A stretch of 59,780 nucleotides of DNA from a virus (Duplodnaviria; Caudoviricetes): positions 1-59,780 of IMG/VR virus record IMGVR_UViG_3300025084_000023, one strand, 5' to 3'. Position 1 is the first letter of the stretch. Each line of letters begins with the position of its first letter. This document shows positions 186-59,212 of this stretch, in pieces. The notes under the pieces were generated by a model. It saw only the letters and a program-made list of their open reading frames with translations. It did not search any database and was not told where the DNA came from. A program made the translations under genes and the position numbers.

Positions 186-249
186 GGTTAACTGATGAGA
201 CTTTAATAGTCGAAACGTGAGTCTGTTCCAACAGACTTGCGTCTTAACC
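186..249 (+). ncRNA. Hammerhead ribozyme, type I (HHR1); predicted cleavage after GUC243
   Basis: Stem I GGUUAA/UUAACC, core CUGAUGA, stem II GACU-uuaau-AGUC, GAAA, stem III CGUGAGUCUGU-ucca-ACAGACUUGCG, then UC; all invariant core bases present. Confidence 0.93.
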
Positions 250-265
250 AAATAAACCAAACACT

Positions 266-1222
266 ATGAATGCACAAATTACTTACACTACAGAGGGAAA
301 CGATGACAGAGGTCGTATGTTATCCTATGGATGGGCAAAGCGCAATGGCTTACCTTATCGGTTTTTCGACAAAACACCATTCCAACATGACATCAAGCAT
401 TTACCACATAATGAGTTAAACTTAACCACCAATGTTACTGATGATGGAGAGATTGAGGCAAAGTTTACTATTGGCTTTGAGGTTGAAAAAAACCAATTCC
501 ACAGAAATGCAGTTAAGGAATATCCGTTATTCTCGCACTTTGAGACAGATGGTTCTTGTGGTGTTGAAGCCATCACAAACGTACTTCCGTTGATTGGTCG
601 TTCGGTGTGGAGAAACAAGGTATTGTCTATGTTCAGTGAGGCTAAGCATATCGTTGATGACCAATTCTCTCCATCGAACATTGATTGTGGAGGTCACATT
701 AACCTAGCCGTTAAAGGTGTGAGTGGCTCTGAGTTAGCTGATGCACTTAGACCATTCAGTGGAATTATATACGCTCTGTATCGTTTCAGATTAAAACGCT
801 CTTGGTGTCAAGCTAACATCTTTATGGATGTAGATGAGTGCGATTGGGAGGGTTTGAGAAACCACGAGAAATATCAAGTTTGTCGCATTGAAAATAATAG
901 GGTTGAGTTTAGATTGCCTAGCAGAATCAAGTCTGTGACTGACTTAAACCTACGCTACCGATTGATGTACGAGATTGTTAACTATGCCATCAATAAGCCA
1001 AACGGCACGCACAGAGGTCTTTTGAGTAAGCTAAAGCCAATCCTTATGATGATGTACAACAACAATGCTGACAAGGTATCTGAGGTTATGGAGTTATCAA
1101 AGCACTTCAGAAAGATGCTTATGACTCGAAAGATAAACCACGCAGTTCAACCATTCGTTGACCAATACGGGAGACTGAGTAGTCTGTATACACGAAGTCT
1201 TAGAGCAGATAGTCTAAGATGA
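266..1222 (+). CDS. Putative amidoligase (COOH-NH2 ligase, glutamine-synthetase fold)
   Basis: Motifs IGFEVE, DGSCGVE, CGGHIN, VEFRL typical of phage amidoligases; partner GATase/GGCT gene at 5385. Confidence 0.8.
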   Translation: MNAQITYTTEGNDDRGRMLSYGWAKRNGLPYRFFDKTPFQHDIKHLPHNELNLTTNVTDDGEIEAKFTIGFEVEKNQFHRNAVKEYPLFSHFETDGSCGVEAITNVLPLIGRSVWRNKVLSMFSEAKHIVDDQFSPSNIDCGGHINLAVKGVSGSELADALRPFSGIIYALYRFRLKRSWCQANIFMDVDECDWEGLRNHEKYQVCRIENNRVEFRLPSRIKSVTDLNLRYRLMYEIVNYAINKPNGTHRGLLSKLKPILMMMYNNNADKVSEVMELSKHFRKMLMTRKINHAVQPFVDQYGRLSSLYTRSLRADSLR

Positions 1223-1227
1223 TGATT

Positions 1228-1253
1228 GGGGAGTCTGTTCCAACAGACTTCCC
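1228..1253 (+). repeat. 18-bp palindrome copy extended to a GC-clamped hairpin
   Basis: GGGG-AGTCTGTTCCAACAGACT-TCCC directly after the amidoligase stop codon. Confidence 0.9.
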
Positions 1254-1255
1254 TA

Positions 1256-1306
1256 TCCGTCCACAAGTGAGTGCTTGTGCTGATGAGACCAAAAGGTCGA
1301 AACGGA
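1256..1306 (+). ncRNA. Hammerhead ribozyme, type III (HHR2); predicted cleavage after GUC1261
   Basis: UCCGUC^, stem I CACAAG-ugagug-CUUGUG, CUGAUGA, stem II GACC-aaaa-GGUC, GAAA, CGGA closing stem III. Confidence 0.93.
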
Positions 1307-1332
1307 AACCTTAATTTAATACCAAACAGATT

Positions 1333-1503
1333 ATGATTACCACAAAACACAGAATTACATACGCTAGATGCATTGACTCGGGGATGAGCAGCGCGTTACA
1401 GATAGCTACTATCTTTAAGATGGTGTATGATATCACAGATGCAGAAGCATTAAAGCTAACGAAGTCTTGTGCTGAGTACTACAATGAAACACTAACTAAA
1501 TAA
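1333..1503 (+). CDS. Small hypothetical protein (56 aa, MITTKHRITY...)
   Basis: ORF read manually; ATG after an A-rich leader, fills the gap downstream of HHR2. Confidence 0.6.
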   Translation: MITTKHRITYARCIDSGMSSALQIATIFKMVYDITDAEALKLTKSCAEYYNETLTK

Positions 1504-1512
1504 GTAGAAATT

Positions 1513-1662
1513 ATGAGCAAATTTACCTTAACAATGATAGGTGTATTAGCTAGCATTCTAACGATTGCAGTGTACACGATGTCCAATTGCCTAGAGATTA
1601 AACTTCTAATCACGCTAATGGACTTACCGATTATTCTATTGATTACAAACGAGTTAAACTAA
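1513..1662 (+). CDS. Small membrane protein (49 aa, MSKFTLTMIGVLASILTIAV...)
   Basis: ORF read manually; two hydrophobic stretches; tightly packed. Confidence 0.6.
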   Translation: MSKFTLTMIGVLASILTIAVYTMSNCLEIKLLITLMDLPIILLITNELN

Positions 1663-1667
1663 AAGTT

Positions 1668-1892
1668 ATGATAAAAGTATATTTTGAGAGCAATTCTCAC
1701 GCAGAGTTAGTCGCTACATTTGAGAGCGAGGAGTTGTATATAGCTAGTCTTCCTGCATTGGAGAAGAAAGCTAAAGAGCAGGGGATGATAGTCACAGAGG
1801 TTGACGAAGAACAAGAATGGGAGACTGAGTGCGAGCATAAGCAAGAGGTTGACTTAGGCATACACGATGATTATCTAGATAGATGTAACTAA
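1668..1892 (+). CDS. Hypothetical acidic protein
   Basis: ORF track; operon packing. Confidence 0.7.
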   Translation: MIKVYFESNSHAELVATFESEELYIASLPALEKKAKEQGMIVTEVDEEQEWETECEHKQEVDLGIHDDYLDRCN

Positions 1893-1904
1893 AACTTAGA
1901 GACA

Positions 1905-2060
1905 ATGAAACCAAAAGCATTTGTAATCGAGGGCAAGTTAGTAAGACTTGACGAGGATGGAAAGTTCTACCGATTAAATGGAGTCGGCAAGTGGAACGAG
2001 ATTAAACCAAAAGATTTGTATAACCTAATAACACAGACAGATGAAAAAGAGATTGATTAA
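1905..2060 (+). CDS. Small hypothetical protein (51 aa, MKPKAFVIEG...)
   Basis: ORF read manually; overlaps the start of the next gene. Confidence 0.55.
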   Translation: MKPKAFVIEGKLVRLDEDGKFYRLNGVGKWNEIKPKDLYNLITQTDEKEID

Positions 2061-2415
2061 CTTAGTAATAGATGCGTGTTATCGCATAGACAAGAAACGT
2101 GGTAAGTTAAACCATTATGAGGGCGAGACTGCACCATATTGTGGGCATCACTATAATGGAACAGATGGCGTCTTGTATAGTTCACATTATCACGAGGGCG
2201 ATGGTGGAGAGCGCGCTAACATACTTGGATTCAGATTCGGTAGAGATACAGATGATGAGTATTGGTGGGAGTTTAGATACAAACTGACTCGAGCGATATA
2301 TTTAAACGGGCAGTTCATTGCGAGAAATAACTACACCACATTCCTAAATGAATTGAAGGCTTTACACCATCACTACAAGCACGGTTTCAAAGTGAAGTAC
2401 GAGTGGAAAGATTAA
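2041..2415 (+). CDS. Hypothetical protein
   Basis: ORF track; stop codon abuts HHR3. Confidence 0.7.
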   Translation: MKKRLINLVIDACYRIDKKRGKLNHYEGETAPYCGHHYNGTDGVLYSSHYHEGDGGERANILGFRFGRDTDDEYWWEFRYKLTRAIYLNGQFIARNNYTTFLNELKALHHHYKHGFKVKYEWKD

Positions 2416-2416
2416 A

Positions 2417-2480
2417 GGTTAACTGATGAGGATTGAATATCCGAAACATAAGTCTGTTCAAACAGACTTGTGTCTTAACC
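2417..2480 (+). ncRNA. Hammerhead ribozyme, type I (HHR3); predicted cleavage after GUC2474
   Basis: GGUUAA CUGAUGA GGAU-ugaau-AUCC GAAA CAUAAGUCUGU-ucaa-ACAGACUUGUG UC UUAACC; compensatory changes relative to HHR1. Confidence 0.93.
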
Positions 2481-2570
2481 AAATATATCTCATTGCCCAT
2501 TTGGGGTTAAAAATGCCCATTTGGGGCAATGGAATGTTAACTATCTAATAATCAGAAAGTTAAAAATAAA

Positions 2571-2602
2571 TTTGGTAGTTCGAATTATTATACATATCTT
2601 TG
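2571..2602 (+). promoter_or_regulatory. Bacteroidota sigma-A-type promoter
   Basis: TTTG(2571)-N20-TATCTTTG(2595-2602). Confidence 0.85.
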
Positions 2603-2631
2603 TATAAATTTAGTACAATAAATATTAACCG

Positions 2632-2649
2632 AGTCTGTTCGAACAGACT
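2632..2649. repeat. 18-bp palindrome copy in 5' leader
   Basis: AGTCTGTTCGAACAGACT. Confidence 0.9.
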
Positions 2650-2667
2650 AATTAAAACCAAAACACA

Positions 2668-2880
2668 ATGAGTATTAGAACAACATTTTATTACGAGAGG
2701 GTAGGCGAAAGCCACGAGGTTATCGGTGCAGTAAAGCACTGCATAAGACCACAATCCACAAAGGTGTGGAAGCAGTTACAGAGAGGTCTTGATACCGACA
2801 AGTACAGACGTATAGGTTGGAGACGCAGTGAAGGTAACACGCAATGGAAAAGTTCAACAAGTATATTAAAAACAAGATAA
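2668..2880 (+). CDS. Hypothetical protein
   Basis: ORF track; first ATG after the promoter. Confidence 0.65.
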   Translation: MSIRTTFYYERVGESHEVIGAVKHCIRPQSTKVWKQLQRGLDTDKYRRIGWRRSEGNTQWKSSTSILKTR

Positions 2881-2882
2881 TT

Positions 2883-3212
2883 ATGAGCGAGTTAAAAAAG
2901 AGTTTTCAGAAAGTAAGATACGTAGGTTGGGAGAGTTCAATGTCTCCTACGATAGAGCGTGAAAAAAAGACAATGCAATACCACGTTGGTTGGGACAAGA
3001 GCAGAGAGAGAGGTTGGTTTGAAATCTACGATGTTGATAGTGGTGGCGATGACTACTACGGAGAAGGTGGGCTTGAGTTCACCGGCAATGTGTTAGATGG
3101 ATACGATGGTGTGTTCTCGTTAGACGATGAGGTTGTTAAGTGCGTCAAGGATTGGGGTGCTGATACAAAGGACATGGAAGAATCTTTAGGTTATGGCTCA
3201 GAAGACAATTAA
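2883..3212 (+). CDS. Hypothetical protein (start adjusted to MSELKK)
   Basis: ORF track 2844-3212; ATG 2883 lies just after the upstream stop. Confidence 0.7.
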   Translation: MSELKKSFQKVRYVGWESSMSPTIEREKKTMQYHVGWDKSRERGWFEIYDVDSGGDDYYGEGGLEFTGNVLDGYDGVFSLDDEVVKCVKDWGADTKDMEESLGYGSEDN

Positions 3213-3393
3213 AGAGGGTGTAGACTACGAGGTTATCGTAAGCTATACGGACGATGGTTTTGGCTTAAACGTGGAGTCGATAGAGTATGTATGTGGGACG
3301 ACGAATCAAGTCGTCCCAATAGATAACTTCCTATATGATTTCCTAGACGTGGGTGCTATCAACGAGATGGAAGATTTAATAAGAAAAGGTTAA
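3193..3393 (+). CDS. Hypothetical protein; stop codon lies within HHR4 stem I
   Basis: ORF track. Confidence 0.65.
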   Translation: MAQKTIKEGVDYEVIVSYTDDGFGLNVESIEYVCGTTNQVVPIDNFLYDFLDVGAINEMEDLIRKG

Positions 3394-3451
3394 CTGATGA
3401 GGGCTTAGTGTCCGAAACTAGAGTCTGTTCGAACAGACTTTAGTCTTAACC
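3388..3451 (+). ncRNA. Hammerhead ribozyme, type I (HHR4); predicted cleavage after GUC3445
   Basis: GGUUAA CUGAUGA GGGC-uuagu-GUCC GAAA CUAGAGUCUGU-ucga-ACAGACUUUAG UC UUAACC. Confidence 0.93.
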
Positions 3452-3468
3452 ATTAAAACTAAATTATT

Positions 3469-3681
3469 ATGGGACAGATGAAAGAATTATTTATCTCAAT
3501 GCAAGAAGGTCTTATGCAAGGGGTAGCAATCACAAACGCTCAGCGTGAGCGTCAGTTAGATAACGAGCATAAGATGAGCGTGTCGGTCGAGGAGTTCAAT
3601 CCCGACAATGAAAAGCACGTAGAGATTATGCAAGAAACACAACAAGCAATGGAGGAAAATAGCTATGGAGAAGACGAATAA
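3469..3681 (+). CDS. Hypothetical protein
   Basis: ORF track; starts 18 nt after HHR4. Confidence 0.7.
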   Translation: MGQMKELFISMQEGLMQGVAITNAQRERQLDNEHKMSVSVEEFNPDNEKHVEIMQETQQAMEENSYGEDE

Positions 3682-3886
3682 AAGGTATAGGGCTGTAATC
3701 AAGTGGCTAGATACGGGCAATATAGATTGGGTTGTTCTCAAGATAGGAGACATTGCCGAGGACGATGATGATATATTTTTCTACCTAGAAAGTGAGAAAG
3801 AGATTGAATCGTTTAAGAAGGAAGGCTCACACGAGTGGGTAATCATTAAAATTAAAGAAGAAAATAGTTATGGAGAAGGACAATAA
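3665..3886 (+). CDS. Hypothetical protein
   Basis: ORF track; overlapping junctions. Confidence 0.7.
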   Translation: MEKTNKRYRAVIKWLDTGNIDWVVLKIGDIAEDDDDIFFYLESEKEIESFKKEGSHEWVIIKIKEENSYGEGQ

Positions 3887-4169
3887 ACTTATAGCAGAAT
3901 TTATGGGGACTGAATGGCACAAAGATTTTTTTAAAGATGTTTGTATAATATCTTCAAGCAATATATCCTATAAATTTCACTCCTCTTGGGATTGGCTTAT
4001 GCCGGTCGTCCAAAAGATAGGCGATGAATATCTTAATACACCATTTGATGAGACGTACTCACACCTTACAGAGCAGTACGAAAACATTTGGACATTAGAA
4101 GATACATATAAAGCAGTAGTAGAATTTATTAAAGACCAAAAAGACAGAAAAGATGGACTTAAGAAGTAA
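3870..4169 (+). CDS. Paralog A of a tandem family (IAEFMG...SWDWLMPV...YKAVVEFIK)
   Basis: Shares three anchor motifs with the next two ORFs. Confidence 0.75.
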   Translation: MEKDNKLIAEFMGTEWHKDFFKDVCIISSSNISYKFHSSWDWLMPVVQKIGDEYLNTPFDETYSHLTEQYENIWTLEDTYKAVVEFIKDQKDRKDGLKK

Positions 4170-4722
4170 AGATGCAATAGAAAGCAGTAAGCAACACGAT
4201 ATTGATATGAGCAACATCCTTATAGCAGAATTTATGGGGTGTACCCATCCTCATAATGAGATTACAGATGCTACCTTATACAATGTTAGTCATGGTACAT
4301 TTGAATTAAGTGAGTTAAGGTATGATGTATCTTGGAATTGGCTTATGCCTGTAATTGAAAAGATAGAGAGTTTAGGGTACGAAGTACAAATAAGAAGTAC
4401 TGACTGTATTATATTCCAACTATTAGATACTCTCGACTACAAACCAATAATAGGTACTATATCAAGTGCAAGTGGTAAAATGTATAGCACTTATATAGCA
4501 GTAGTAGAATTTATTAAAGACCAAAAAGACAGAAAAGATGGACTTAAGAAGTAAAGACGCAATAGAAAGCAGTAAGCAACACGATATTGAAATGAGCAAT
4601 ACCCTTATAGCAGAATTTATGGGGGCTGAATGGCACAAAGATTTTTTTAAAGATGTTTGTATAATCTCTCCAAGCAATATATCATATAAATTTCACACAT
4701 CTTGGGATTGGCTTATGCCGGT
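3888..4722 (+). repeat. Interleaved direct repeats: 3888-4006 ~ 4604-4722 and 4112-4239 ~ 4497-4624
   Basis: Near-identical DNA blocks at offsets 716 and 385. Confidence 0.9.
4153..4554 (+). CDS. Paralog B of the tandem family
   Basis: Same anchor motifs. Confidence 0.75.
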   Translation: MDLRSKDAIESSKQHDIDMSNILIAEFMGCTHPHNEITDATLYNVSHGTFELSELRYDVSWNWLMPVIEKIESLGYEVQIRSTDCIIFQLLDTLDYKPIIGTISSASGKMYSTYIAVVEFIKDQKDRKDGLKK

Positions 4723-4858
4723 GGTTCACAAGTGTTATCAAGAACATACGTGTAGCCAAGAACGTATGAATAGTAATGATGCATATGAAATTAAGACGTG
4801 CGACATAACTAGAGTATATAAAGCAGTAGTAGAATTTATTAAAGAGTATAACAACTAA
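4538..4858 (+). CDS. Paralog C of the tandem family
   Basis: Same anchor motifs. Confidence 0.75.
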   Translation: MDLRSKDAIESSKQHDIEMSNTLIAEFMGAEWHKDFFKDVCIISPSNISYKFHTSWDWLMPVVHKCYQEHTCSQERMNSNDAYEIKTCDITRVYKAVVEFIKEYNN

Positions 4859-4909
4859 TAAATTGAGCCGAATAGAAAGACTAATTGGCTCAGAATTAAA
4901 ACAAGAGAT

Positions 4910-5269
4910 ATGAAAAAGTCAATACAAACACCATTGGGTGTATATACAGATGATGAAGCAGGTATCGAGATGATTGAGTCTTACGCCAACCAAAGAGTTA
5001 TTGATGAATTAGAGAAAGCCTCTCTAATGGATGTAAAACCAATGAAGTATAACGGATGGACAAACAGAGCAACTTGGTTGTTTAACCTTCATTATGGAAA
5101 CAAAATAAATAACGAAACTGATTTCAATAGAGAAAAAAATCAATGCGAAGAAGAACACGAAAACCTAATAAACACTATAGGTACTTGTATGTGGTCTGAC
5201 TTGATTGATATAAGAGAGATAAACTTTATCGAGTTATTTAATAGGATGAGTTCAGATTGGAGTAAGTAA
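4910..5269 (+). CDS. Hypothetical protein
   Basis: ORF track; contains a YNGWTNRATW motif. Confidence 0.7.
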   Translation: MKKSIQTPLGVYTDDEAGIEMIESYANQRVIDELEKASLMDVKPMKYNGWTNRATWLFNLHYGNKINNETDFNREKNQCEEEHENLINTIGTCMWSDLIDIREINFIELFNRMSSDWSK

Positions 5270-5285
5270 AATAAATGTAAATAAA

Positions 5286-5317
5286 TTTGGCAGTGTCTAA
5301 ATTTTGTATTACTTTTG
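5286..5317 (+). promoter_or_regulatory. Bacteroidota sigma-A-type promoter
   Basis: TTTG(5286)-N20-TACTTTTG(5310-5317). Confidence 0.85.
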
Positions 5318-5346
5318 TACAAATCAAATACAATTAATCAGAGGTC

Positions 5347-5364
5347 AGTCTGTTCCAACAGACT
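5347..5364. repeat. 18-bp palindrome copy in 5' leader
   Basis: AGTCTGTTCCAACAGACT. Confidence 0.9.
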
Positions 5365-5384
5365 CCTCACAAATCACAATCACT

Positions 5385-6314
5385 ATGTGTGTAATTATTA
5401 TCAAACAGAAAGAGCAAATGATGTCAAGAGAAATTGCAAAGACATCAGCAAGAATCAATCCTCACGGGTTGGGAATTATTTGGTTAGATACCTACGAGGT
5501 AACATACCACAAATCAAAAGACTATGGAGTTCTACTCACAGATAGACCATTCATTGCTCACTTCCGTTACGCTACGGTTGGTGCAATCAATAGAGAGAAC
5601 ACGCATCCGTTCGTATGTGGAGTTCAGAAGGATGAGTATTTAATGATGAACGGAACAATCAACGGCTTGGGAAACGCACAGATGTGCGACTCAAAGGTTC
5701 TAGCAAATCAGCTAGGTCTTAGACCAAGACATACTTGGAAGCAAGAGATAGAGCAGTTCGATTGTAGATTCGTTACAGTGAATGTGCGCAATCGCTCATT
5801 CCAAATGTACAACAGAGGAGATTGGCATTACAGAGATGGTATATGGTACTCTAAAGCTAACGTACTGCAAGAGAATATTATCGCAGTATACGGAACGCTA
5901 AAGAAAGGTTATAGCAACTACCACAACTACCTAACAACATCTAAGTTTATTGGTAGTGGTGTGACTAAAGACCGGTACCCTCTACTTATTCAAGGCTTAC
6001 CATATATGGTAGAGCAGAAAGGTGTGGGTTATAATGTGCAGGTCGATGTGTTCAAGGTATCAGACGATGTACTAGCAAGACTTGATATGCTAGAAGGTCA
6101 TCCAAAGTGGTATGTTAGAAAGCAAGTACCTATCCACGTTAAAGGTAGGATAGTAAATTGTTGGGTGTATTTCAATCCAAAGACGATAACAAAGGATACT
6201 CAGATGCACAAGACATATGTTCAGCATAGCTATAGAAACTTCTATTCGACTCCAACTACAGAGACGTACACTCCTAGTTTATGGGACGATATGGAAGCTA
6301 TATTAAATTCGTAA
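5385..6314 (+). CDS. Class II glutamine amidotransferase fused to a gamma-glutamylcyclotransferase (AIG2-like) domain
   Basis: Start 5385 gives M-C (Ntn nucleophile Cys); NPHGLG, HFRYAT, NTHPF, NG, DS motifs; C-terminal AVYGTLK...LDMLEG GGCT motifs. Confidence 0.88.
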   Translation: MCVIIIKQKEQMMSREIAKTSARINPHGLGIIWLDTYEVTYHKSKDYGVLLTDRPFIAHFRYATVGAINRENTHPFVCGVQKDEYLMMNGTINGLGNAQMCDSKVLANQLGLRPRHTWKQEIEQFDCRFVTVNVRNRSFQMYNRGDWHYRDGIWYSKANVLQENIIAVYGTLKKGYSNYHNYLTTSKFIGSGVTKDRYPLLIQGLPYMVEQKGVGYNVQVDVFKVSDDVLARLDMLEGHPKWYVRKQVPIHVKGRIVNCWVYFNPKTITKDTQMHKTYVQHSYRNFYSTPTTETYTPSLWDDMEAILNS

Positions 6315-6434
6315 GCGTGGTCAGTTTGGTCTCTCCGATGTCTTGGAGACTGAAGGGTTGCTTGCTTAAGGTTAATAGTCTAGACCACCACCTTTTCTAG
6401 GTTTCATATATAGACAAAAGCAATCAAAGATATT

Positions 6435-6467
6435 AAGAGAGTCTGTTCGAACAGACTCTTTTTTTTT
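6435..6467 (+). terminator. Intrinsic terminator whose stem is the 18-bp palindrome
   Basis: AAGAG-AGTCTGTTCGAACAGACT-CTT followed by a T run. Confidence 0.85.
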
Positions 6468-6477
6468 ACTTAAATAA

Positions 6478-6509
6478 TTTGTTTATGTATAAAATATGTA
6501 CTATATTTG
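6478..6509 (+). promoter_or_regulatory. Bacteroidota sigma-A-type promoter
   Basis: TTTG(6478)-N20-TATATTTG(6502-6509). Confidence 0.85.
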
Positions 6510-6539
6510 TACTATTAATAAACTAAAAATAAACACACA

Positions 6540-6893
6540 ATGAGTATTAAACAGAGTATACTAAATGATATTCGGGCAGAGAAGCTATGCTCTACTCCGG
6601 ATAAGTATCACGTGCAGAGATGCCAAAAGATACTTGACAATCTAGATAAGCTAGACCATCAACAATTCGTAAACACAGGTCATATTATGCCGGTAGACCA
6701 AATGAAAGACAGGTACCCGCACCGTAAGTTACGAGAGGATAGTAAGTCTGTATGCCGGTATGTAGGTGGGTTCTGCATTGAGTTTGTAGGAACTAATAAA
6801 TTCTTTTGGAACTACCACGAGGACGTAGACTTTAAGCACGTTGAGATGACGTTATTTAATCACGTAAAGAGTTTGATTGATGAGCAAGTCTAG
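6540..6893 (+). CDS. Hypothetical protein
   Basis: ORF track; first gene after the promoter. Confidence 0.7.
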   Translation: MSIKQSILNDIRAEKLCSTPDKYHVQRCQKILDNLDKLDHQQFVNTGHIMPVDQMKDRYPHRKLREDSKSVCRYVGGFCIEFVGTNKFFWNYHEDVDFKHVEMTLFNHVKSLIDEQV

Positions 6894-7161
6894 AGACTAT
6901 CAGATAAAAAGAAAGCTAAGCCTTATTCAGGATATGCTAATACAAAAGAATAGAGCGTATGGTAGTTCTGCCCTTGAGCCTCTGAATATTTTCAGTAAGG
7001 GTAAGGCTACCAACTCTCTATGCTCTCGCATAGATGACAAGCTAGCAAGGATAAAGAACGTAGGTGTATCAGATGAGACAGAGGATACTCTGTTTGATTT
7101 GGTTGGTTACCTAGTATTATTAATGATTTCAATTGACGACAATGAAAAGAGAGATATTTAA
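6880..7161 (+). CDS. DUF1599 / nucleotide-modification-associated domain protein
   Basis: KNRAYG...RIDDKLARIKN...EDTLFDLVGY pattern. Confidence 0.7.
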   Translation: MSKSRDYQIKRKLSLIQDMLIQKNRAYGSSALEPLNIFSKGKATNSLCSRIDDKLARIKNVGVSDETEDTLFDLVGYLVLLMISIDDNEKRDI

Positions 7162-7441
7162 TCAGTATGTAGACGAGATAGTTAAACTATTTCGAATAAG
7201 CAAAGAAGATTTATTTACTAAATCTAAGAGGCGAAACTTAGTGGACGCAAGGTATACCTTGTACTATTTATGTGCAACAAGACCAATGAGACTTAAGTAC
7301 ATCACTCAGTTTATGTTAGACAATGGATACGATATTGCACACAACAACATAATGCACGGCATTAAATGTATGCAAGAAAAAGTTAACGAGGATAACGATT
7401 ATAAGTTAATAATTAAAAGACTAGAGTTATGCGTAGCTTAG
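7142..7441 (+). CDS. DnaA C-terminal (domain IV)-like HTH protein
   Basis: ISKEDLFTKSKRRNLVDARYTLYYL...HNNIMHG resembles the DnaA_C signature. Confidence 0.65.
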   Translation: MKREIFNQYVDEIVKLFRISKEDLFTKSKRRNLVDARYTLYYLCATRPMRLKYITQFMLDNGYDIAHNNIMHGIKCMQEKVNEDNDYKLIIKRLELCVA

Positions 7442-7836
7442 AGGATATATTCAAAGAAGCAATGAATGATAGCTACTCAGCTATCCTAGATACTCCATAT
7501 GTAGAAGCTAGGTTAGTCTTTGGGGTTAAGATAGTAAGGGACAGAGAGAGTGGCCTTATAGAGATTCTTAATACCACAAGAGGTGGCGATTACTATAAGG
7601 AGATTACCCAAAAAGAATACCAAGAATTTTACGTAAACGGTTGGAGATATGGGGTTTATGACGTATCTTTGTCTAACTATCGAAGGAAGTTAGATATGAT
7701 TGACTACAATGTTAATGAAGCGATTGCTAACCTTGCTAGTAAGAAAGAGATAGAAGGCTTTCATACACGTAGAAAGAATATAATGAATCGCTACGCAAAA
7801 ATTTCTAATAAATTAAATCTATTAAGCAATGAGTAA
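7429..7836 (+). CDS. Hypothetical protein
   Basis: ORF track. Confidence 0.7.
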   Translation: MRSLEDIFKEAMNDSYSAILDTPYVEARLVFGVKIVRDRESGLIEILNTTRGGDYYKEITQKEYQEFYVNGWRYGVYDVSLSNYRRKLDMIDYNVNEAIANLASKKEIEGFHTRRKNIMNRYAKISNKLNLLSNE

Positions 7837-8413
7837 GAACAACTACACTACACTAGCTACGCTCCCTATCAGAGAAAAGGTTGAGCGCAAAGGAAACTTA
7901 GACTACTTATCTTGGGCAAATGCTTGGCATATGCTAAAGACAATACATCCCGACGCACAGAGGATTGTATATGAGTCTGTTCAAACAGACTTAAACTATT
8001 TCACAGACGGAACAACTGCATACGTTAAGGTTGGGGTTGTCGTGGATGGCTTAGAGCATATTGATTACCTTCCGGTAATGGATTACAGAAATAACTCAAT
8101 ACCATTAGAGAAAGTTACGTCAATGGATGTAAACAAATCTATTCAGCGTTCAACTGCTAAAGCTATTGCAATGCACGGGTTAGGTTTATCTCTATGGACG
8201 GGAGAGGATATTCCACAAATGACCACAGTTAAATCAGAATCTAAGACTAAAGCATCTAAGATAACTCTTGAGATTGCAGACGACAATTGGGCTAAGGTTA
8301 TGAAGTATATGTCAGCGAACAAGAACTTAGGTCTTACTCAGATTGTTAAGAACTTGGAGACCAAGTATAAGATGAATGCTAAGGTTAAGAAGGAACTAGA
8401 GAAGGCTATGTAA
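7829..8413 (+). CDS. Sak3-like single-strand annealing protein (DUF1071)
   Basis: YLSWANAW, PVMDYRNN, DVNKSIQR...KAIAMHGLGL motifs; next to exonuclease and SSB-like genes. Confidence 0.8.
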   Translation: MSKNNYTTLATLPIREKVERKGNLDYLSWANAWHMLKTIHPDAQRIVYESVQTDLNYFTDGTTAYVKVGVVVDGLEHIDYLPVMDYRNNSIPLEKVTSMDVNKSIQRSTAKAIAMHGLGLSLWTGEDIPQMTTVKSESKTKASKITLEIADDNWAKVMKYMSANKNLGLTQIVKNLETKYKMNAKVKKELEKAM

Positions 8414-8414
8414 T

Positions 8415-9149: not shown

Positions 9150-9165
9150 TCTGTTCGAACAGACT
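9148..9165. repeat. 18-bp palindrome copy overlapping the exonuclease stop codon
   Basis: AGTCTGTTCGAACAGACT. Confidence 0.9.
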
Positions 9166-9174
9166 CACACAGAT

Positions 9175-9222
9175 GGCGAAACTCGATGTGCCTCCAATCG
9201 AGTCTAGCCTTTATAATGGAGG
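9175..9222 (+). promoter_or_regulatory. Candidate H-type RNA pseudoknot in the leader of the SSB-like gene
   Basis: Stem ACUCGAU/AUCGAGU (extended by GGC/GCC); loop CCUCCA complementary to downstream UGGAGG. Confidence 0.6.
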
Positions 9223-9237
9223 ATAAATATTTACACT

Positions 9238-9504: not shown

Positions 9505-9523
9505 ATTCCCCCTAGTTAGAGTG

Positions 9524-9556
9524 AAGAGGGTAGGCTATATGTCTACCCTTTTTTTT
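9524..9556 (+). terminator. Intrinsic terminator
   Basis: AGGGTAGGC-tatat-GTCTACCCT followed by a T run. Confidence 0.85.
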
Positions 9557-9565
9557 AGCTATGTT

Positions 9566-9717: not shown

Positions 9718-9718
9718 A

Positions 9719-53955: not shown

Positions 53956-54390
53956 ATGAATAATGACTACCTAAAGTATTGGCGTGTAATAAGATACTTC
54001 ATAAAAGCTAAGTACAATCTAACACAAGGCGACTTAGATGTGGTGCTATTTTTAAACTCAGAAGGTTACTTCGATAAAGCAAAGTTTGATGAGTTCGATG
54101 AACTACTTAGTTGGGATGAAGGAAGGTTTAAAAGATTGCTGCGTGATGGATGGATACAGGTGTTTAGAAAAAGATGCGGCCCAACCAAAACAATATACGT
54201 GCTCTCATACAAAGGCAAAAGAGTATGCACCTCAATCTACAAGAAACTAAACGGTGAAGAAATACCAACTAGTTCAGCAGGTAACCCTATGTTTGCAAAG
54301 AATGTGAAGTACACCGATAAGGTGTATAGGAACTTTATTAAAGAGATGAACGCTGCTACACGACAACAACGACATCGTGCTCCTGAATAA
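53956..54390 (+). CDS. Winged-helix-like putative regulator; the only + strand gene in the late arm
   Basis: Start adjusted to MNNDYLKYW; F.RL.RDGWI...Y.LS.KG wing pattern. Confidence 0.6.
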   Translation: MNNDYLKYWRVIRYFIKAKYNLTQGDLDVVLFLNSEGYFDKAKFDEFDELLSWDEGRFKRLLRDGWIQVFRKRCGPTKTIYVLSYKGKRVCTSIYKKLNGEEIPTSSAGNPMFAKNVKYTDKVYRNFIKEMNAATRQQRHRAPE

Positions 54391-54613
54391 TCGTAAACTG
54401 CTCGTTCTCAATAAACATAGAGTAACCGGCCCTGCTATCGTAGTATATCGTGTCACCCTTGTTGATTACATTCACGTCAGTACCTGATTCAGATACATTA
54501 GCTTTCTTATAGCGTATACCATCAACGTCATCACCTGACAAAAGAAGTCCTGACTTGGTTTTTACCTCTTCCTTGATTTCTTTAATCGCTATGTATTTTC
54601 CTATTGGTTTCAT
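54356..54613 (-). CDS. groES: Co-chaperonin GroES
   Basis: KPIG...TKSGLLL mobile loop...GDTIYY...IIQEHDVV. Confidence 0.88.
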   Translation of the reverse strand: MKPIGKYIAIKEIKEEVKTKSGLLLSGDDVDGIRYKKANVSESGTDVNVINKGDTIYYDSRAGYSMFIENEQFTIIQEHDVVVVV

Positions 54614-54843: not shown

Positions 54844-55500
54844 CTAGTATCCTGTTAAAAGTTTTAGTACGTCATTTATTGCTTGGTGTCTGTGGTTATC
54901 CTCTAGGATTACCTTGAACACGTGCTTGCTATCCTTAATCTTATGAACGTCATCAATCGCTGAGTTTAGCGTAGACCCTAAGTCAATCTGTTGATTATCC
55001 CCGCAGAATATCATTATTGAATCCTTACCTAATCTACCCAACGCCATACGTAGCTGTGGTTTGGTTAGGTTCTGAAACTCATCCACAATAACTACAGCGT
55101 TGTCAAATGTCCTACCCCTGAAGTGCGCAAGAGATACAAGCTCAATCTCCTCTTGCTCCACCATCTTTGCTATCTTCTCAGGCTTGTTATAAACCTTACG
55201 CATATTAGACATTATGGGTACAAGCCAAGGCTCTAGCTTCTCCTTCTCATCACCGGGTAAAAATCCGTTGTCCTCAGTAGCTACGGTAGGTCTTGTGATT
55301 ATTATCTTATCATACTGCCTTTTAAAAAATAAATCCAAAGCCACCTGTACGGCTAAGAGAGTCTTACCTGAGCCTGCTTTACCTACAATGAAACTGTAGG
55401 CGTGATTCATTATATTCTCCTTTGCTTTCTTTTGCTCGTCCGATAAAGTTATATTGAACTTCACGTTTCCCCTAGGTGGCTTCTTATCTTTATTGCTCAT
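54844..55500 (-). CDS. phoH: PhoH-family ATPase
   Basis: GKAGSGKT, ITRP, GFLPG, RGRTF, VDEFQN, GDNQQID. Confidence 0.92.
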   Translation of the reverse strand: MSNKDKKPPRGNVKFNITLSDEQKKAKENIMNHAYSFIVGKAGSGKTLLAVQVALDLFFKRQYDKIIITRPTVATEDNGFLPGDEKEKLEPWLVPIMSNMRKVYNKPEKIAKMVEQEEIELVSLAHFRGRTFDNAVVIVDEFQNLTKPQLRMALGRLGKDSIMIFCGDNQQIDLGSTLNSAIDDVHKIKDSKHVFKVILEDNHRHQAINDVLKLLTGY

Positions 55501-55748: not shown

Positions 55749-57356
55749 TTACTTTGTCTCATAACTTCGTGCCATCGTTACAATAGCGTTAGTACTTAGA
55801 AGAGTGACAGCTACTGACACCGCATTTTGAAGTGCGCTCTTTGTAACCTTCATCGGGTCAATAACACCCATTGTCATTAATCTCCCTCTCTTGTCATTCT
55901 TTACGTCATATCCGAAACCTCTTGGCGTTTCATCATTATACAGGTCATCATATTTCAGCCCTGCATTTGACAGTATAGTATTGATAGGCGCAAGCAATGA
56001 CTGCTTAAGTATCTTGTAAGCAACCTTCTTCTCATCAGACCACTTATCACTTATAGTCATAAACCTTGAGATGTTCTCAAGAGCTAAGCCACCACCCGGT
56101 AGTATACCTTCGAGCGTAGCTGAACGCACTGCACATACAGCATCGTCAACCCTGTCATACAACTCTTTATGTTCTAACTCAGTCTGACCTCCTACGTATA
56201 TCACTCCAACACCACCGGTAAGAGATGCTATTCTTGATTGAATAAACTCTTTCTCTTCCTTTGTTTTAGATATTTCACACGCTCCGTGTAGCTGTGATAC
56301 TCTCTCGTTAATATCATCCTGAGATACAACAGACTCATCTTTCACTATAATCGTAGATGCTCTATCAACTATAACCTTCTTAGCTCTACCTAAATCATTT
56401 GGCATAATTAAACTCAAATCATCACCGGTCTTCTCACTGTAGTAAGTAGCACCAACTGAAAGAGCAATGTCATTCATCAACTCGTGCTGCTTGTAACCAA
56501 AGTTAGGCGGCTGAACACAACATATCTTTAAACCATTCTTCATCACGTTAGCCGATAACGTATTAATCACGTTAGTTGAGCAAGGTGCAATAATAAGCAA
56601 TTTACTACCCTCCTGTATGATTGGCTTTAACACATTCTCAATCTGTAATATATTACTTATCTCAGCGTCACTAACCAATACACGAACATCCTCAAAGATA
56701 CACTCGTCCTTCTTGTGATTGTTTACAAACAAGTTAGATGAGTATCCTCTATCTACTTTTATTCCTTTTGTAGTCTCAAAGTATGTATTAGGGGTTTGCG
56801 AGCGTTCAACAGTAACAATACCATCCTTACCTACCTCTTTGTAGACATCTGCTATCACACCACCTATAAATGGGTCGTTGTTAGCTGATATGGTTGCTAC
56901 ACTAGCCAAAGTCTTATCAGTAACCGGCTTACTCATTTTATTAAGACTCTTCACAATATCTTCTGTACCCTTAACCATTTCACGAAAGACAGCGGTCTTA
57001 TTCAACCCGTCTTTTATATGCTCGTCTCCATTTCGAACCAAGGCGTTAGATAACACTATAGCCGTTGTGGTTCCATCACCCGCAGATACAGCAGTCTTCT
57101 CCGCAGCCTCTTTTACAATTCTGACTGCAAGATTCTCCACAGGGTCAAGCAAGCTAATAGACTTAGCCACTGTGACTCCATCCTTAGTAACCGTCATTCC
57201 CGATAAATGTTCTTGTGATTCGATGAGCACTGTATGACCTTGAGGTCCAAGCGTGCTCTGTACTGCGTTAGTGATTTTCTCTAGACCATTAAACAATTTA
57301 GTTCTACCTTCATCTGAGAAATGTAACTCCTTTGGAGTGTAACCTGATTGATTCAT
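55749..57356 (-). CDS. groEL: Chaperonin GroEL (phage type, no GGM tail)
   Basis: TLGPQG, TKDGVTVA, AGDGTTT, ATISAN, GILPGGG, GVIDP. Confidence 0.95.
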   Translation of the reverse strand: MNQSGYTPKELHFSDEGRTKLFNGLEKITNAVQSTLGPQGHTVLIESQEHLSGMTVTKDGVTVAKSISLLDPVENLAVRIVKEAAEKTAVSAGDGTTTAIVLSNALVRNGDEHIKDGLNKTAVFREMVKGTEDIVKSLNKMSKPVTDKTLASVATISANNDPFIGGVIADVYKEVGKDGIVTVERSQTPNTYFETTKGIKVDRGYSSNLFVNNHKKDECIFEDVRVLVSDAEISNILQIENVLKPIIQEGSKLLIIAPCSTNVINTLSANVMKNGLKICCVQPPNFGYKQHELMNDIALSVGATYYSEKTGDDLSLIMPNDLGRAKKVIVDRASTIIVKDESVVSQDDINERVSQLHGACEISKTKEEKEFIQSRIASLTGGVGVIYVGGQTELEHKELYDRVDDAVCAVRSATLEGILPGGGLALENISRFMTISDKWSDEKKVAYKILKQSLLAPINTILSNAGLKYDDLYNDETPRGFGYDVKNDKRGRLMTMGVIDPMKVTKSALQNAVSVAVTLLSTNAIVTMARSYETK

Positions 57357-57379
57357 TTTGTACTTGATTTGATTTAATG

Positions 57380-57410
57380 CAAATATAAGACATATTTTTT
57401 AATACGCAAA
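57380..57410 (-). promoter_or_regulatory. Bacteroidota promoter for groEL
   Basis: On the - strand, TTTG-N19-TATATTTG. Confidence 0.75.
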
Positions 57411-57570
57411 TGTTAGTTTCAACTACCCCTACTCTATATATATATAATCCCCTTTATTATTATTTTTTTATTTCTATAAAATAGGATTAAAATTAACATT
57501 ATTAACAGTAGTACTGATAATCAAATAGTTAGCTCTTTCATTTCAACATTAAATCAACATCACTTTAACA
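57408..57570. repeat. AT-rich origin-like element, copy 2
   Basis: Colinear similarity to 9566-9717, including an identical 21-mer at 57487-57507. Confidence 0.7.
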
Positions 57571-57579
57571 TATAATGTC

Positions 57580-57607
57580 AAAAAAAAGAGGGAACTTAAT
57601 CCCTCTT
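57580..57607 (-). terminator. Intrinsic terminator
   Basis: On the - strand, AAGAGGGA-ttaagt-TCCCTCTT followed by a T run. Confidence 0.8.
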
Positions 57608-57659
57608 CTCGAATTGAAAGTCACTACCCAATCAATTCAACCATCAAACACAATGAATC

Positions 57660-57851
57660 TTAAATGCCTTTGAATAATTTATTCATATCTTTTTTCATCT
57701 CAGCTCGCTCAATACCATCAGCAATCATATTGGTCTTTTCATTCTTCTTAACCATCTTGCGAAGTTCTGCCGCTTCCTCGATTCCACTTTTTCCTACCGG
57801 GCGATTATTAATCAATCTGCCGTTCTTTACTGTCAATCCACTATAGTTCAT
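57660..57851 (-). CDS. Hypothetical protein
   Basis: ORF track; GLTVKNGRLIN. Confidence 0.7.
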   Translation of the reverse strand: MNYSGLTVKNGRLINNRPVGKSGIEEAAELRKMVKKNEKTNMIADGIERAEMKKDMNKLFKGI

Positions 57852-57993
57852 CTTTGTATATTTTTATGTGTAAACTAATTAATCCTAAGTATAGTATGTA
57901 CTCAGAGAACTTAAAATCTTCATCAGATGGGAAGATTGAGAAACCCAATACAAATCCTACCTTCATTCTATTCTGTAATTCTATCTCGTACAT
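57841..57993 (-). CDS. 50-aa hypothetical protein (MYEIELQNR...)
   Basis: ORF read manually; overlaps the next gene start; TATCTTTA box just upstream. Confidence 0.55.
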   Translation of the reverse strand: MYEIELQNRMKVGFVLGFSIFPSDEDFKFSEYILYLGLISLHIKIYKDEL

Positions 57994-58274
57994 TTGGTAA
58001 AGATACAAAAAATTTTAGATATATAGGGGTTGGGGATTCCCCCCCGCCGCGCGCGCCCGACCCCCCGACAGAAACCGACATTCTCGCAAAGGGTGGGGGT
58101 TGCCTCTCGGTCTCGGTGTCTCGATTTTTTAGGCTTTTGCATAGCACTGCCTAACTGCCTGTGCCTGTGGTGGTTAACCTATTGCACCGCTGTTGTCATC
58201 GCTCTGTATCTCCTGCTGTCACTAGCTTTGACGTAATCGCTCACTTGCTTTCACGTATTCACTGCGCTACGGAT

Positions 58275-58292
58275 GGTCTGTTGGAACAGACT
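58275..58292. repeat. 18-bp palindrome copy (1 mismatch)
   Basis: GGTCTGTTGGAACAGACT. Confidence 0.8.
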
Positions 58293-58473
58293 GCATTCAG
58301 CATAGACTCACAGAGTGAACGTCTAATTGTAGCATATGCTTACAATGGAGGTTATCCATTCCCTACACCAAACCACCATAAACAAACTGCTCACAATATA
58401 CCTGTCGTTATTCCTAGCATTTACTGACATCTGAAATTAAATGTACATTTTTTAAACATTTCTTTGCGTGTAA

Positions 58474-58505
58474 TTAGTTTTATACAAAATTTATACTTAA
58501 TTTAG
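58474..58505 (+). promoter_or_regulatory. Variant early promoter
   Basis: TTAG-N20-TAATTTAG, same spacing as the other early promoters, upstream of the first early gene. Confidence 0.55.
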
Positions 58506-58566
58506 CAAAGCGAATGAGAGATACGCTCTCATCATAACGAGCTAAGATGCTCAAAATCAAACAATT

Positions 58567-59148
58567 ATGAGTCAAATTAACAGAAATTTAGAAGAATTAC
58601 TAGAAAACAATGTTGCAGATTTCAATGGTCTACACCAATTAATGAGTGAAACAAGAGACATCTCACAAGGAGTCTTTGATAAGCAGGTTATCATTGGTCA
58701 GCGTGTAAACACCACCTACAATTGGTTTAAGTCTGCAGAAGGTAAACAAGCAATGGAATACGTAGGTATAGTGATGGATAGAAACGAATTTATCTCACAA
58801 GTTGTTGGAGATAGAAGTTGGTTTTATGAGTTGATTGCTATTGGTAAAGTGAGAGAGGAGTCTCCTAACCTAATCTCTGAGTATAAGGAGTCTACAGAAA
58901 ATCGCTCTGTGAGAGGATGCCTTAAGTTTATCAAGAATGGTGGCGCTGAGTCTGAGGAGACTGAGTCTGAGTCTGAGTCTGCATCTACCACGCTAATGAC
59001 ATTCAGCGCTAAAGCAGAGGCATTAGAGTCTGAGAAGGGCGCTAGTCTTCGTTTGTTGTCTGATGGTAAGATAGAAGGAGTTAATGCTCGTTCTATTGAA
59101 GCATTAGAGATGCTATTAGCTAAAGCTAAAGAGCAATTGAATGCGTAA
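58567..59148 (+). CDS. First early protein, hypothetical, with (SE)n linker
   Basis: ORF track; GAGTCT tandem repeats encode the acidic linker. Confidence 0.8.
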   Translation: MSQINRNLEELLENNVADFNGLHQLMSETRDISQGVFDKQVIIGQRVNTTYNWFKSAEGKQAMEYVGIVMDRNEFISQVVGDRSWFYELIAIGKVREESPNLISEYKESTENRSVRGCLKFIKNGGAESEETESESESASTTLMTFSAKAEALESEKGASLRLLSDGKIEGVNARSIEALEMLLAKAKEQLNA

Positions 59149-59212
59149 GGTTAACTGATGAGACTTCAATAGTCGAAACGTGAGTCTGTTCGAACAGACT
59201 TACGTCTTAACC
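59149..59212 (+). ncRNA. Hammerhead ribozyme, type I (repeat copy of HHR1); cleavage after GUC59206
   Basis: Same fold as 186-249 with three structure-preserving substitutions. Confidence 0.92.

Follow-up and report, generated by a model that had tools for sequence, protein, structure and literature searches.

An 18-nucleotide palindrome dispersed through a phage genome is likely an RNA stem-loop shared by hammerhead ribozymes, terminators, and coding sequences

Introduction

Hammerhead ribozymes are known to flank genes in arrays in prophages and phages, and their processing of transcripts into single-gene mRNAs has been proposed, with the purpose left open in the accessible sections of the report (Perreault et al. 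2011, PMC3088659). Here we analyzed the phage record IMGVR_UViG_3300025084_000023 from IMG/VR (Duplodnaviria; Caudoviricetes), which at its full length of 59,780 bp is referred to below as the window and in which an 18-bp palindrome recurs at 14 distinct loci, several of them inside hammerheads. As in the described arrays, so far as those sections portray them, several hammerheads lie between short genes of a phage early region. Unlike in those arrays, types I and III are mixed here, stem III is a fixed-sequence hairpin of at least 12 pairs, and the sequence of that stem is also found in terminators, untranslated-region (UTR) hairpins, and intragenic sites, which switch in concert.

Other described systems share parts of this arrangement. 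The best match in Rfam is the RAGATH-1 hammerhead (RF03152), which is likewise type-I, its stem I being short and its stem III long (9 pairs), but the upstream hairpin of that model is not conserved in the window copies. In T4-type phages, cassettes made of a promoter and a stem-loop terminator (PeSL) are repeated between nonessential early genes, and insertions, deletions, and swaps are bounded by the motif (Arbiol 2010, PMC2839356; Comeau 2014, PMC4122927). Unlike PeSL as presented in the available text of these two papers, the repeated unit here is the 18-nt stem-loop alone, which is combined with ribozymes and occurs in conserved genes as well. Type-I hammerheads in the 5′ UTRs of RNA viruses self-cleave near the start codon and so create a translated 5′ end (Lopez-Galiano et al. 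2026, PMC13725137). Type-I hammerheads shortly 5′ of a start codon are present in the window too, although the RNA-virus ribozymes, from the portion of that study at hand, belong to a eukaryotic setting and to cap-independent translation, whereas those described here belong to a DNA phage and a polycistronic RNA.

Three of the palindrome copies (6440, 16024, and 38885) resemble intrinsic terminators in that a hairpin is followed by a T-run. Ordinary terminators need no given stem sequence, whereas these three share one, and two other terminators of the phage differ from it. In lambda boxB, which is bound by N, and in coat-protein operators, recognition depends on bases of the loop and bulge, the stem can covary, and a genome holds one or two copies; a boxB/nut site is defined by a 5-bp stem with a GNRA-like pentaloop, a boxA close by, and an arginine-rich protein of the N type. 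The elements described here are similarly short RNA hairpins in a phage transcript for which reading by a protein is proposed, but their stem is fixed, their loop varies, and there are 14 copies. In T7 early mRNA, with its RNase III sites, and in histone mRNA, with its 3′ stem-loop and the protein SLBP, a conserved stem-loop at many gene ends is joined to adjacent cleavage and a protective 3′ hairpin, whereas the predicted cut in the phage would be made by a ribozyme in cis. Finally, REP/RAYT systems contain short multicopy palindromes at gene ends which are thought to stabilize mRNA or terminate transcription; unlike these, the 18-mer is not repeated in the bacterial genomes scanned, and some of its copies are intragenic.

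Hammerheads flanking phage genes, PeSL-type cassettes, and intrinsic terminators are known, and what appears new is the shared hairpin that unites a ribozyme arm, terminators, and coding sites. The searchable literature contained no ribozyme arm that doubles as a dispersed genomic hairpin with lineage-wide switches extending into coding sequence. No paper in it joined hammerheads to Cellulophaga phages, and among the papers listed none mentioned phages of Flavobacterium or Cellulophaga; supplements, which were outside that search, might list such ribozymes.

Results

Occurrence of the palindrome

An exact scan (C at position 9, 0 mismatches) returned 21 strand-matches at 14 positions: 220, 1232, 2451, 2632, 3422, 5347, 6440, 7974, 9148, 13326, 16024, 23078 (minus strand), 38885, and 59183. 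The same pattern had 0 matches in 100 dinucleotide shuffles. When the center was left free and up to 3 mismatches were allowed, 15 positions were found, namely, the 14 exact ones and 58275, compared with a mean of 0.44 and a maximum of 4 in shuffles. The original prediction, made from the letters of the window, had placed a palindrome with nearly invariant arms at these coordinates, all of which were correct; the invariance held for the 14 exact positions but not for 58275, where a G replaces the A at position 1 and forms G.U on the plus strand and A.C on the minus strand. The copy at 59183, which had been described as lying in a terminal repeat, is indeed present, but the repeat proved to be an imperfect overlap in which positions 1 to 817 match 58964 to 59780 at 94.0%, with 49 mismatches and 0 gaps. 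Since the record ends overlap by 817 nt, 220 (loop TCCA) and 59183 (loop TCGA) were counted as two variants of one locus, which leaves 14 distinct loci. A search of genomes from 185,579 species yielded only 4 single hits to the 18-mer, and an origin as a host repeat or REP element was rejected, as the sequence was repeated in no bacterial genome scanned.

When folded as part of the sense transcript, the copies form hairpins of 7 to 14 pairs. Four of the 15 positions fall in stem III of type-I hammerheads, one lies directly 5′ of a type-III hammerhead, and three form terminator stems; the others are two promoter-proximal 5′ UTR hairpins, three intragenic copies, one copy over a stop codon, and one in the noncoding region between the two gene arms. 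The hammerhead and intrinsic-terminator context, which accounts for most copies, had been overlooked in the earlier reading.

Strand asymmetry of the stem and loop

Nine related records (G001 to G007, G010, and G011) that are 70 to 92% identical to the window were fetched, and a scan of these together with the window (10 genomes) found 91 sites, 73 of which could be assigned a sense strand. Among the transition-type mismatches in the eight stem pairs of these 73 sites, G.U on the sense strand was found at 19 sites and A.C at 1. Family sites are not independent, many being orthologous, and when they were grouped by flank similarity the comparison was 10 groups with G.U against 1 with A.C. At several sites without an assigned sense strand, G.U lay on the strand on which a hammerhead or T-run reads. 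Extension of the stem beyond the 18-mer, by way of G.U pairs, occurs on the sense strand only. GNRA loops are a feature of RNA, and G001 has loops of this type (GUGA and GUAA) on the sense strand at two orthologous terminators. Given the 19 G.U sites to 1 A.C site, selection on the 18-mer appears from these comparisons to act on a transcribed hairpin rather than on a symmetric double-stranded DNA (dsDNA) site.

The loop gave a less regular picture. The original prediction had observed that the loop reads UCNA on the sense strand, and this was so in 7/7 asymmetric window copies with a clear gene direction, with the sense direction of copy 220 taken from its downstream gene. The check proposed with it, a mismatch-tolerant scan of related genomes with loop orientation compared to gene strand, found orientation to be biased: among the 73 sites, 30 had C9 on the sense strand and 5 the opposite, with 34 symmetric and 4 otherwise asymmetric. 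The rule nevertheless describes a tendency only, with 9 flank groups following it, 3 against it, and 1 mixed; among the sites that break it are position 7422 of G002, the late terminator of G011, and the SNF2 site of both G010 and G011. The broader proposal of a single-stranded hairpin in place of a symmetric dsDNA operator gains stronger support from the G.U asymmetry, the sense-only stem extensions, and the GNRA loops than from this loop argument. The suggested likeness to lambda boxB or a coat-protein operator did not hold up, as the stem has 7 to 14 bp and a 4-nt loop instead of 5 bp and a GNRA-like pentaloop, and no start codon is enclosed. Conservation is highest in the stem and lowest in the loop, which is the opposite of the boxB and coat-operator models.

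Hammerhead ribozymes containing or adjoining the palindrome

The type-I hammerheads occupy three loci and four record positions, all on the plus strand. The one at 186 to 249 consists of stem I (186-191/244-249), the core CUGAUGA (192-198), stem II (199-211), GAAA (212-215), and stem III (215-242), which contains the palindrome at 220-237; its predicted cut, C243/U244, lies 22 nt before the ATG at 266. Those at 2417 to 2480 (palindrome 2451-2468 within stem III, predicted cut 2474/2475) and 3388 to 3451 (palindrome 3422-3439 within stem III, predicted cut 3445/3446) are built in the same way, and the stop codon of gene 3193-3393 falls within stem I of the latter. The hammerhead at 59149 to 59212 is the second variant of that at 186 to 249, located in the overlap of the record ends, and differs from it at three places, all of which are in loops or change U.G to U-A. 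At 220, 2451, 3422, and 59183 the shared frame is GGUUAA-CUGAUGA-(stem II)-GAAA-C-NNN-[palindrome]-NNN-G-UC-UUAACC, in which stem I is a plain 6-bp helix and stem III is the palindrome plus four further pairs, some of them G.U.

The copy at 1232 has a different arrangement. It forms a free-standing plus-strand hairpin of 11 to 12 bp at 1228 to 1253 (GGGG, palindrome 1232-1249, UCCC, with one G.U) that begins 6 nt past the stop codon of gene 266-1222 and ends 2 nt before a type-III hammerhead at 1256 to 1306 on the same strand. The latter comprises stem III (1256-1260/1302-1306), a stem I hairpin (1262-1279), the core (1280-1286), stem II (1287-1298), and GAAA (1299-1302), with the cut predicted at C1261/C1262.

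For all four window ribozymes, the minimum-free-energy fold is the hammerhead, with z scores of −3.5 to −4.9 (−4.2 for 186 to 249). The catalytic core was complete in all 16 aligned sequences (CUGAUGA, or CUGACGA in one G003 copy; GAAA; GUC/GUA). In an alignment of eight type-I sequences from three genomes (window, G003, and G006), 176/176 cells were paired (100%) and 7/22 pairs were changed on both sides; the covariation score was reached by 0/500 shuffles, and slid controls were 23 to 36% paired. A second alignment of eight hairpin plus type-III sequences from six genomes had 98.0% of 205 cells paired and 12/26 pairs changed on both sides. Stem I was invariant in the type-I alignment, and a compensatory change to GAUUAA/UUAAUC was found in G010 and G011.

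Type-I hammerheads with the stem I GGUUAA/UUAACC are widespread in viral contigs, with at least 141 copies at at least 120 IMG/VR loci. Among the matches listed, 4/141 have the family stem III, all of them in relatives of this clade, and the other type-I hammerheads mostly have a stem III of 4 to 8 bp; likewise among these matches, 4/141 have any second copy of the stem III core within their own locus. In the same set, several viral contigs of diverse sizes hold 2 to 4 type-I hammerheads within a few kilobases.

Upstream of the homologs of gene 266-1222, the window has a type-I ribozyme with internal hairpin, whereas G006 and G007 have the hairpin plus a type-III ribozyme. At the corresponding site in G005 (L041; 1102-1160, minus strand), the hairpin is kept and the 5′ half of the hammerhead survives as a degenerate remnant, which makes this site a natural ribozyme-loss variant. 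Before these homologs, it is the hairpin that stays constant and the ribozyme that is exchanged. Gene 266-1222 (plus strand) itself encodes a 318-aa protein with no family match, has a ribozyme on either side, and is conserved out to MW202828, an uncultured podovirus. A direct repeat, TGCCCATTTGGGG in two copies at 2494-2530, lies between the hammerhead at 2417-2480 and a promoter-like site at 2571-2602 and is kept in G003.

Terminators, leader hairpins, and copies within genes

A hairpin containing G+C with an immediate U-run on the transcribed strand was found at 3/15 copies, of which two belong to the early arm and the third to the late arm. At 6435 to 6462 (plus strand), a 12-pair stem that includes the palindrome at 6440-6457 is followed by a T-run. 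At 16020 to 16045 (plus strand), where the two gene arms converge, the palindrome (16024-16041) is extended by GGAG and CUCC and followed by T9. The third, at 38878 to 38909, reads in sense on the minus strand and has 14 pairs including the palindrome at 38885-38902, one G.U, and a T-rich tail. Among the terminator-like sites in positions 1 to 17000, the hairpins at 16020-16045 and 6435-6462 take the two highest ranks.

Two plus-strand copies form 5′ UTR hairpins about 30 nt after promoter-like sites (TTTG-N19-TAnnTTTG) of the Bacteroidota type, for which the consensus is TTTG-N-TAnnTTTG. The site at 2571 to 2602 precedes the hairpin at 2632 to 2649, which has no stem extension and lies 18 nt before the ATG at 2668. 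The site at 5286 to 5317 precedes the hairpin at 5347 to 5364, which has a GAGG/CCUC extension via a 2-nt bulge and lies 20 nt before the ATG at 5385. A third promoter-like site, at 6478 to 6509 (plus strand), is located 3′ of the terminator at 6435 to 6462. Across the whole window the Bacteroidota motif had 9 hits compared with 5.4 in shuffles, which is not significant alone, and a sigma-70 promoter scan gave no excess (52 hits versus 54). The distance from hairpin to ATG is 18 to 29 nt for four copies and 72 nt for the copy at 9148, and the others are at gene ends or intragenic. The product of gene 5385-6314 (plus strand) is a fusion of a glutamine-amidotransferase-like part and a gamma-glutamyl cyclotransferase-like part (Pfam GGACT, E 1e-22), and it too is conserved out to MW202828.

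Copies within genes lie in the gene for a Sak-like single-strand annealing protein (7974 to 7991, plus strand; codons 49-54, ESVQTD), in a gene for an SNF2-type helicase (13326 to 13343, plus strand; codons 322-327, SLFQQT), and in the gene for a 2460-aa protein (23078 to 23095, minus strand; codons 114-119, ESVPTD), and all three genes have homologs. The N-terminal part of the 2460-aa protein has the palindrome-encoded ESVPTD at least once per genome. On the plus strand, the copy at 9148 to 9165 overlaps the exonuclease gene (8415-9149) at its stop codon and lies 72 nt ahead of a gene for a protein resembling a single-strand DNA-binding protein (SSB). That gene, at 9238-9504 (plus strand) and thus 3′ of the hairpin, encodes 88 aa with a C-terminal EEDLPF that resembles the acidic tail of SSB, and its depth is raised in contigs from RNA libraries. 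The imperfect copy at 58275 to 58292, with G at position 1, is in the 1.2-kb inter-arm noncoding region, has no assigned strand, and has its loop flipped among relatives.

Contigs from libraries labeled as marine metatranscriptomes cover parts of the early arm with a word share of 0.05 to 0.25; these are assembled contigs (Logan), from which RNA ends and strand are not readable. No position at which many molecules start or stop was listed for them. One RNA-library contig ends at 9164 and another, of higher depth, begins at 9138, perhaps as an effect of assembly.

Concerted change of the stem among lineages

The copies within a genome share one stem sequence, with the exception of G001. The stem is AGUCUGUU..AACAGACU in the window, G003, G004, G005, and the distant G002; it is AGUCCGUU..AACGGACU in G010 and G011, at 14 and 13 sites, and A(A/G)UCCGUUAUAACGGA(U/C)U in G006 and G007. 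The site at 9148, for example, reads AGTCTGTTCGAACAGACT in the window, G003, and G001, and its ortholog reads AATCCGTTATAACGGATT in G006, AGTCCGTTTAAACGGACT in G010, and AGTCCGTTTCAACGGACT in G011, between identical flanks. Orthologs of the copy at 5347 in G006, G010, and G011 similarly carry the variant of their own lineage between conserved flanks. Such concerted switches, with flanks unchanged, were found at the exonuclease stop, the 5′ UTR site, the three terminators, and the ribozyme stems. They extend into coding sequence: in the Sak gene the pair is switched by a synonymous substitution in each of two codons (TCT to TCC and ACA to ACG), and in the SNF2 gene the same pair is switched by two nonsynonymous ones (L to P and Q to R). 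The SNF2 linker of MW202828 has no hairpin. MW202828 and G008, which are more distant, had 0 hammerheads and lacked a repeated hairpin, and each of their terminators is different. Apart from these switches, G001 (L030) contains three identical 24-nt hairpins, GGAUGUCCGCUUAAGCGGAUGUCC, with two G.U pairs at ~14467-14490, 14830-14853, and 15642-15665, which lie upstream of a type-III hammerhead, in an intergenic stretch, and, after a promoter-like site, in a 5′ UTR.

Genome organization and probable host

The window is the whole record, with a completeness estimate of 100%, and IMG/VR classes it as linear without end repeats. The record is probably a join of two strain variants, the underlying genome being circularly permuted or terminally redundant and ~58,963 bp long. 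The rightward arm runs from ~58.5 kb through the record end to 16 kb and holds early and replication genes, whose products include the Sak-like annealing protein, an exonuclease, a primase-helicase, the SNF2 helicase, and nucleases. The leftward, late arm runs from 57.4 kb down to 16 kb, and its products include GroEL-like and PhoH-like proteins, terminase, portal, virion proteins, and the 2460-aa protein. Gene direction and GC skew change together at 16 kb, and the genome G+C content is 37%.

The large terminase is 76% identical to that of MW202828, and the next phages listed, which have Flavobacterium hosts, are at most 46% identical; 87 records match the terminase, including phages of Cellulophaga, Tenacibaculum, and Maribacter, all below 60%. 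This likeness to phages of Flavobacterium and related genera suggests that the host is probably a marine member of the Flavobacteriia.

Between the arms, the 1.2-kb noncoding stretch at 57360-58560 includes a (TA)n tract near 57437-57450, an island of high G+C content near 58028-58112, and two iteron-like repeats, TTT(G/C)ACGTA(A/T)TC, directly 5′ of the palindrome at 58275, and it is a candidate origin or packaging region. The phage encodes a GroEL-like chaperonin (55749-57356, minus strand) and a small protein (54356-54613, minus strand) that is 53% identical to an MW202828 protein annotated as a 10-kDa chaperonin. The open reading frame (ORF) at 16053-23435 (minus strand), which encodes the 2460-aa protein, closes the late arm and is strongly variable among close relatives; the protein has no Pfam family, and its sole PHROGs match is phrog_32588, of unknown function.

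Discussion

We consider it likely that the 18-mer represents, at the DNA level, an RNA stem-loop serving as a standard part of the mRNA-processing and termination signals of this clade. This judgment covers the RNA hairpin, the hammerheads, and the terminators, and it does not extend to a factor that reads the stem. In the scheme that we propose, the ribozymes would cut polycistronic early RNA between genes, and the upstream RNA would end in a stable hairpin, produced either by a ribozyme cut or by termination. A ribozyme cut would leave a 2′,3′-cyclic phosphate on the upstream RNA and would give the downstream gene a 5′-OH and an unstructured A/C-rich leader of ~20 to 30 nt. The stability and translation of adjacent genes would thereby be uncoupled, in a host that does not use Shine-Dalgarno sites.

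Several observations weigh against this interpretation or against its extension to a specific reader of the stem. At gathering thresholds, Rfam had 0 matches of any kind in the window, hammerheads included; the best subthreshold scores were 26.1 bits versus a threshold of 56.3 for the RAGATH-1 hammerhead (at 186 to 249) and 17.8 (at 1256 to 1306) and 15.6 versus 34 for Hammerhead_1, a shortfall that is likely due to the long stem III. Ordinary terminators with unrelated stems are also present (38053-38028 and 35091-35067), so the 18-mer hairpin is not required for termination as such. Five copies (the three intragenic ones, 9148, and 58275) have no evident processing role. As for a reader, an invariant stem with a variable loop is unusual for protein recognition of an RNA hairpin, and G001 is mixed: pair 5/14 is U-A in some of its copies and C-G in others, which speaks against a strict reader. 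Judged by presence/absence and identity pattern, no ORF was found in all hairpin-bearing genomes that was absent from MW202828 and G008.

The identity of copies within a genome and their concerted switching among lineages point to either a sequence-specific reader or homogenization between copies. As the switches reach even intragenic copies, we think it an almost even prospect that the exact stem is read by a sequence-specific partner, which would most likely be a phage-encoded RNA-binding protein or nuclease. More tentatively, we propose a hairpin code in which a phage reader, which could be a protein or else the hairpin RNAs themselves through mutual pairing, may recognize the lineage-specific stem wherever it is present.

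The search for such a reader identified none and gave only leads. No N-like or coat-like partner protein and no RAYT-like gene or transposase was detected among the ORFs scanned, the former in Pfam and PHROGs. The ORFs that track the hammerhead-bearing genomes are those for a PhoH-like ATPase and those at 41508-41753, 41753-41905, 48689-49084, and 58567-59148 (the first early gene), although hammerhead-bearing genomes are also simply closer relatives and the tracking may reflect relatedness only. The PhoH-like ATPase (54844-55500, minus strand; Pfam PF02562, E 4e-53) is present in G001, G004, G006, G007, G010, and G011, which are all of the hammerhead-bearing relatives that cover the region, and is absent from G002, G008, and MW202828. 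The PhoH-like family has been linked to RNA helicase and RNase partners, and this ATPase may thus be a lead for an RNA-handling factor, with the same reservation about relatedness. In the ESM Atlas, the product of 58567-59148 matched unnamed viral clusters only, and its likeness to a DUF3102 cluster (0.94, 161 shared features) is a candidate lead only.

The alternative that survives best, and that we regard as a credible though not the favored account, is that copy identity is a by-product of spread or homogenization at the DNA level. The palindrome, together with its hammerhead or promoter, would then be a recombination linker that shuffles gene cassettes, comparable to PeSL elements in T4-type phages or to selfish palindromes in organelle genomes, and RNA folding would be used opportunistically with no reader. 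Four rearrangements bounded by the palindrome were seen. At the site of the single window copy 2632, G003 carries two copies (39443 and 39774) with an extra small gene between them; at the site of window copy 23078, likewise single, G004 and G001 carry two copies that enclose a 354-nt in-frame insert; one G003 hammerhead is chimeric with its junction at the palindrome, and a metagenomic contig joins 2649 to 254. The phage also encodes a Sak-type annealing protein and an exonuclease. The accessible accounts of PeSL in T4-type phages offer a precedent (PMC2839356, PMC4122927), and a promoter-like site is combined with a hairpin at 2 of the copies here. Ends of BLAST segments in the early arm fall within 40 nt of a palindrome center in 8/59 cases versus 3.3 expected (P ~0.02), but this excess is weak and is confounded by the fact that intergenic regions are breakpoints anyway. 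Moreover, 18 bp is a very short homology for gene conversion, and orthologous flanks are conserved right up to the first and last base of the palindrome. G002 is only ~70% identical overall and yet has the same 18-mer, a sign that purifying selection acts on the sequence. Selection at the RNA level at nearly all sites, including intragenic ones, is also shown by the strand-specific pattern of G.U pairs.

That pattern bears as well on a symmetric dsDNA operator for a dimeric phage regulator, such as a helix-turn-helix protein, or a roadblock or parS-like site, with use of the RNA secondary. We consider this improbable, even though the dyad symmetry is perfect, the stem is invariant with a variable center, two copies lie ~30 nt 3′ of promoter-like sites, some copies are intragenic, and helix-turn-helix proteins with weak Bac_DnaA_C matches are encoded at 7133-7441 and 14130-14681. 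The half-sites of such an operator are equivalent and should decay equally, with no strand preference, whereas G.U on the sense strand outnumbers A.C by 19 to 1 and C9 is favored on the sense strand by 30 to 5. The strand-specific stem extensions, the GNRA loops on the G001 sense strand, and the position of 9/15 copies within or directly beside recognizable RNA elements likewise favor the transcribed hairpin.

It is very improbable that the hairpin acts as single-stranded DNA on the sense strand (the lagging-strand template), as a priming or initiation signal or as an N4-type promoter for a virion RNA polymerase: strand bias alone does not tell a sense RNA from a sense DNA strand, the direction of the genes changes at 16 kb together with the GC skew, and a giant protein of unknown function ends the late arm, but that protein has no polymerase match in Pfam and its PHROGs match is only to a family of unknown function, hammerhead folding needs parts upstream of the hairpin to be cotranscribed, three copies have T-runs 3′, GNRA loops are an RNA feature, and the copy number and gene-end positions are unlike those of N4 early promoters. 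The ideas of an N4-type hairpin promoter and of T-loop mimicry (UUCNA) were dropped, as the loop motif is lost in the G006 lineage (UUAUAA) and in the G001 lineage.

If the RNA stem-loop is recognized through a hairpin code, then ribozyme cleavage, termination, mRNA stability, and the fate of the mRNAs of three replication or virion genes would be coupled as one switch. The hammerheads would be regulated ribozymes with stem III as their control handle, and the reader and its 14 sites would coevolve, which would explain the concerted switches and the amino acid changes in the helicase. The clade is in any case unusually clear material on the question of why phages carry ribozymes. It provides compact units of gene, ribozyme, leader, and gene with predicted cut sites, natural variants before one gene (type-I ribozyme, type-III ribozyme, and bare hairpin), and a ribozyme arm tied in sequence to terminators, UTRs, and coding regions, in at least three lineage variants that switch in concert and for each of which complete genomes of ~60 kb are available. 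If a reader exists, these phages would represent a new way of regulating ribozymes and mRNA ends; if there is none, they would show how dispersed copies of an 18-nt palindrome can remain identical even when this costs amino acid changes.

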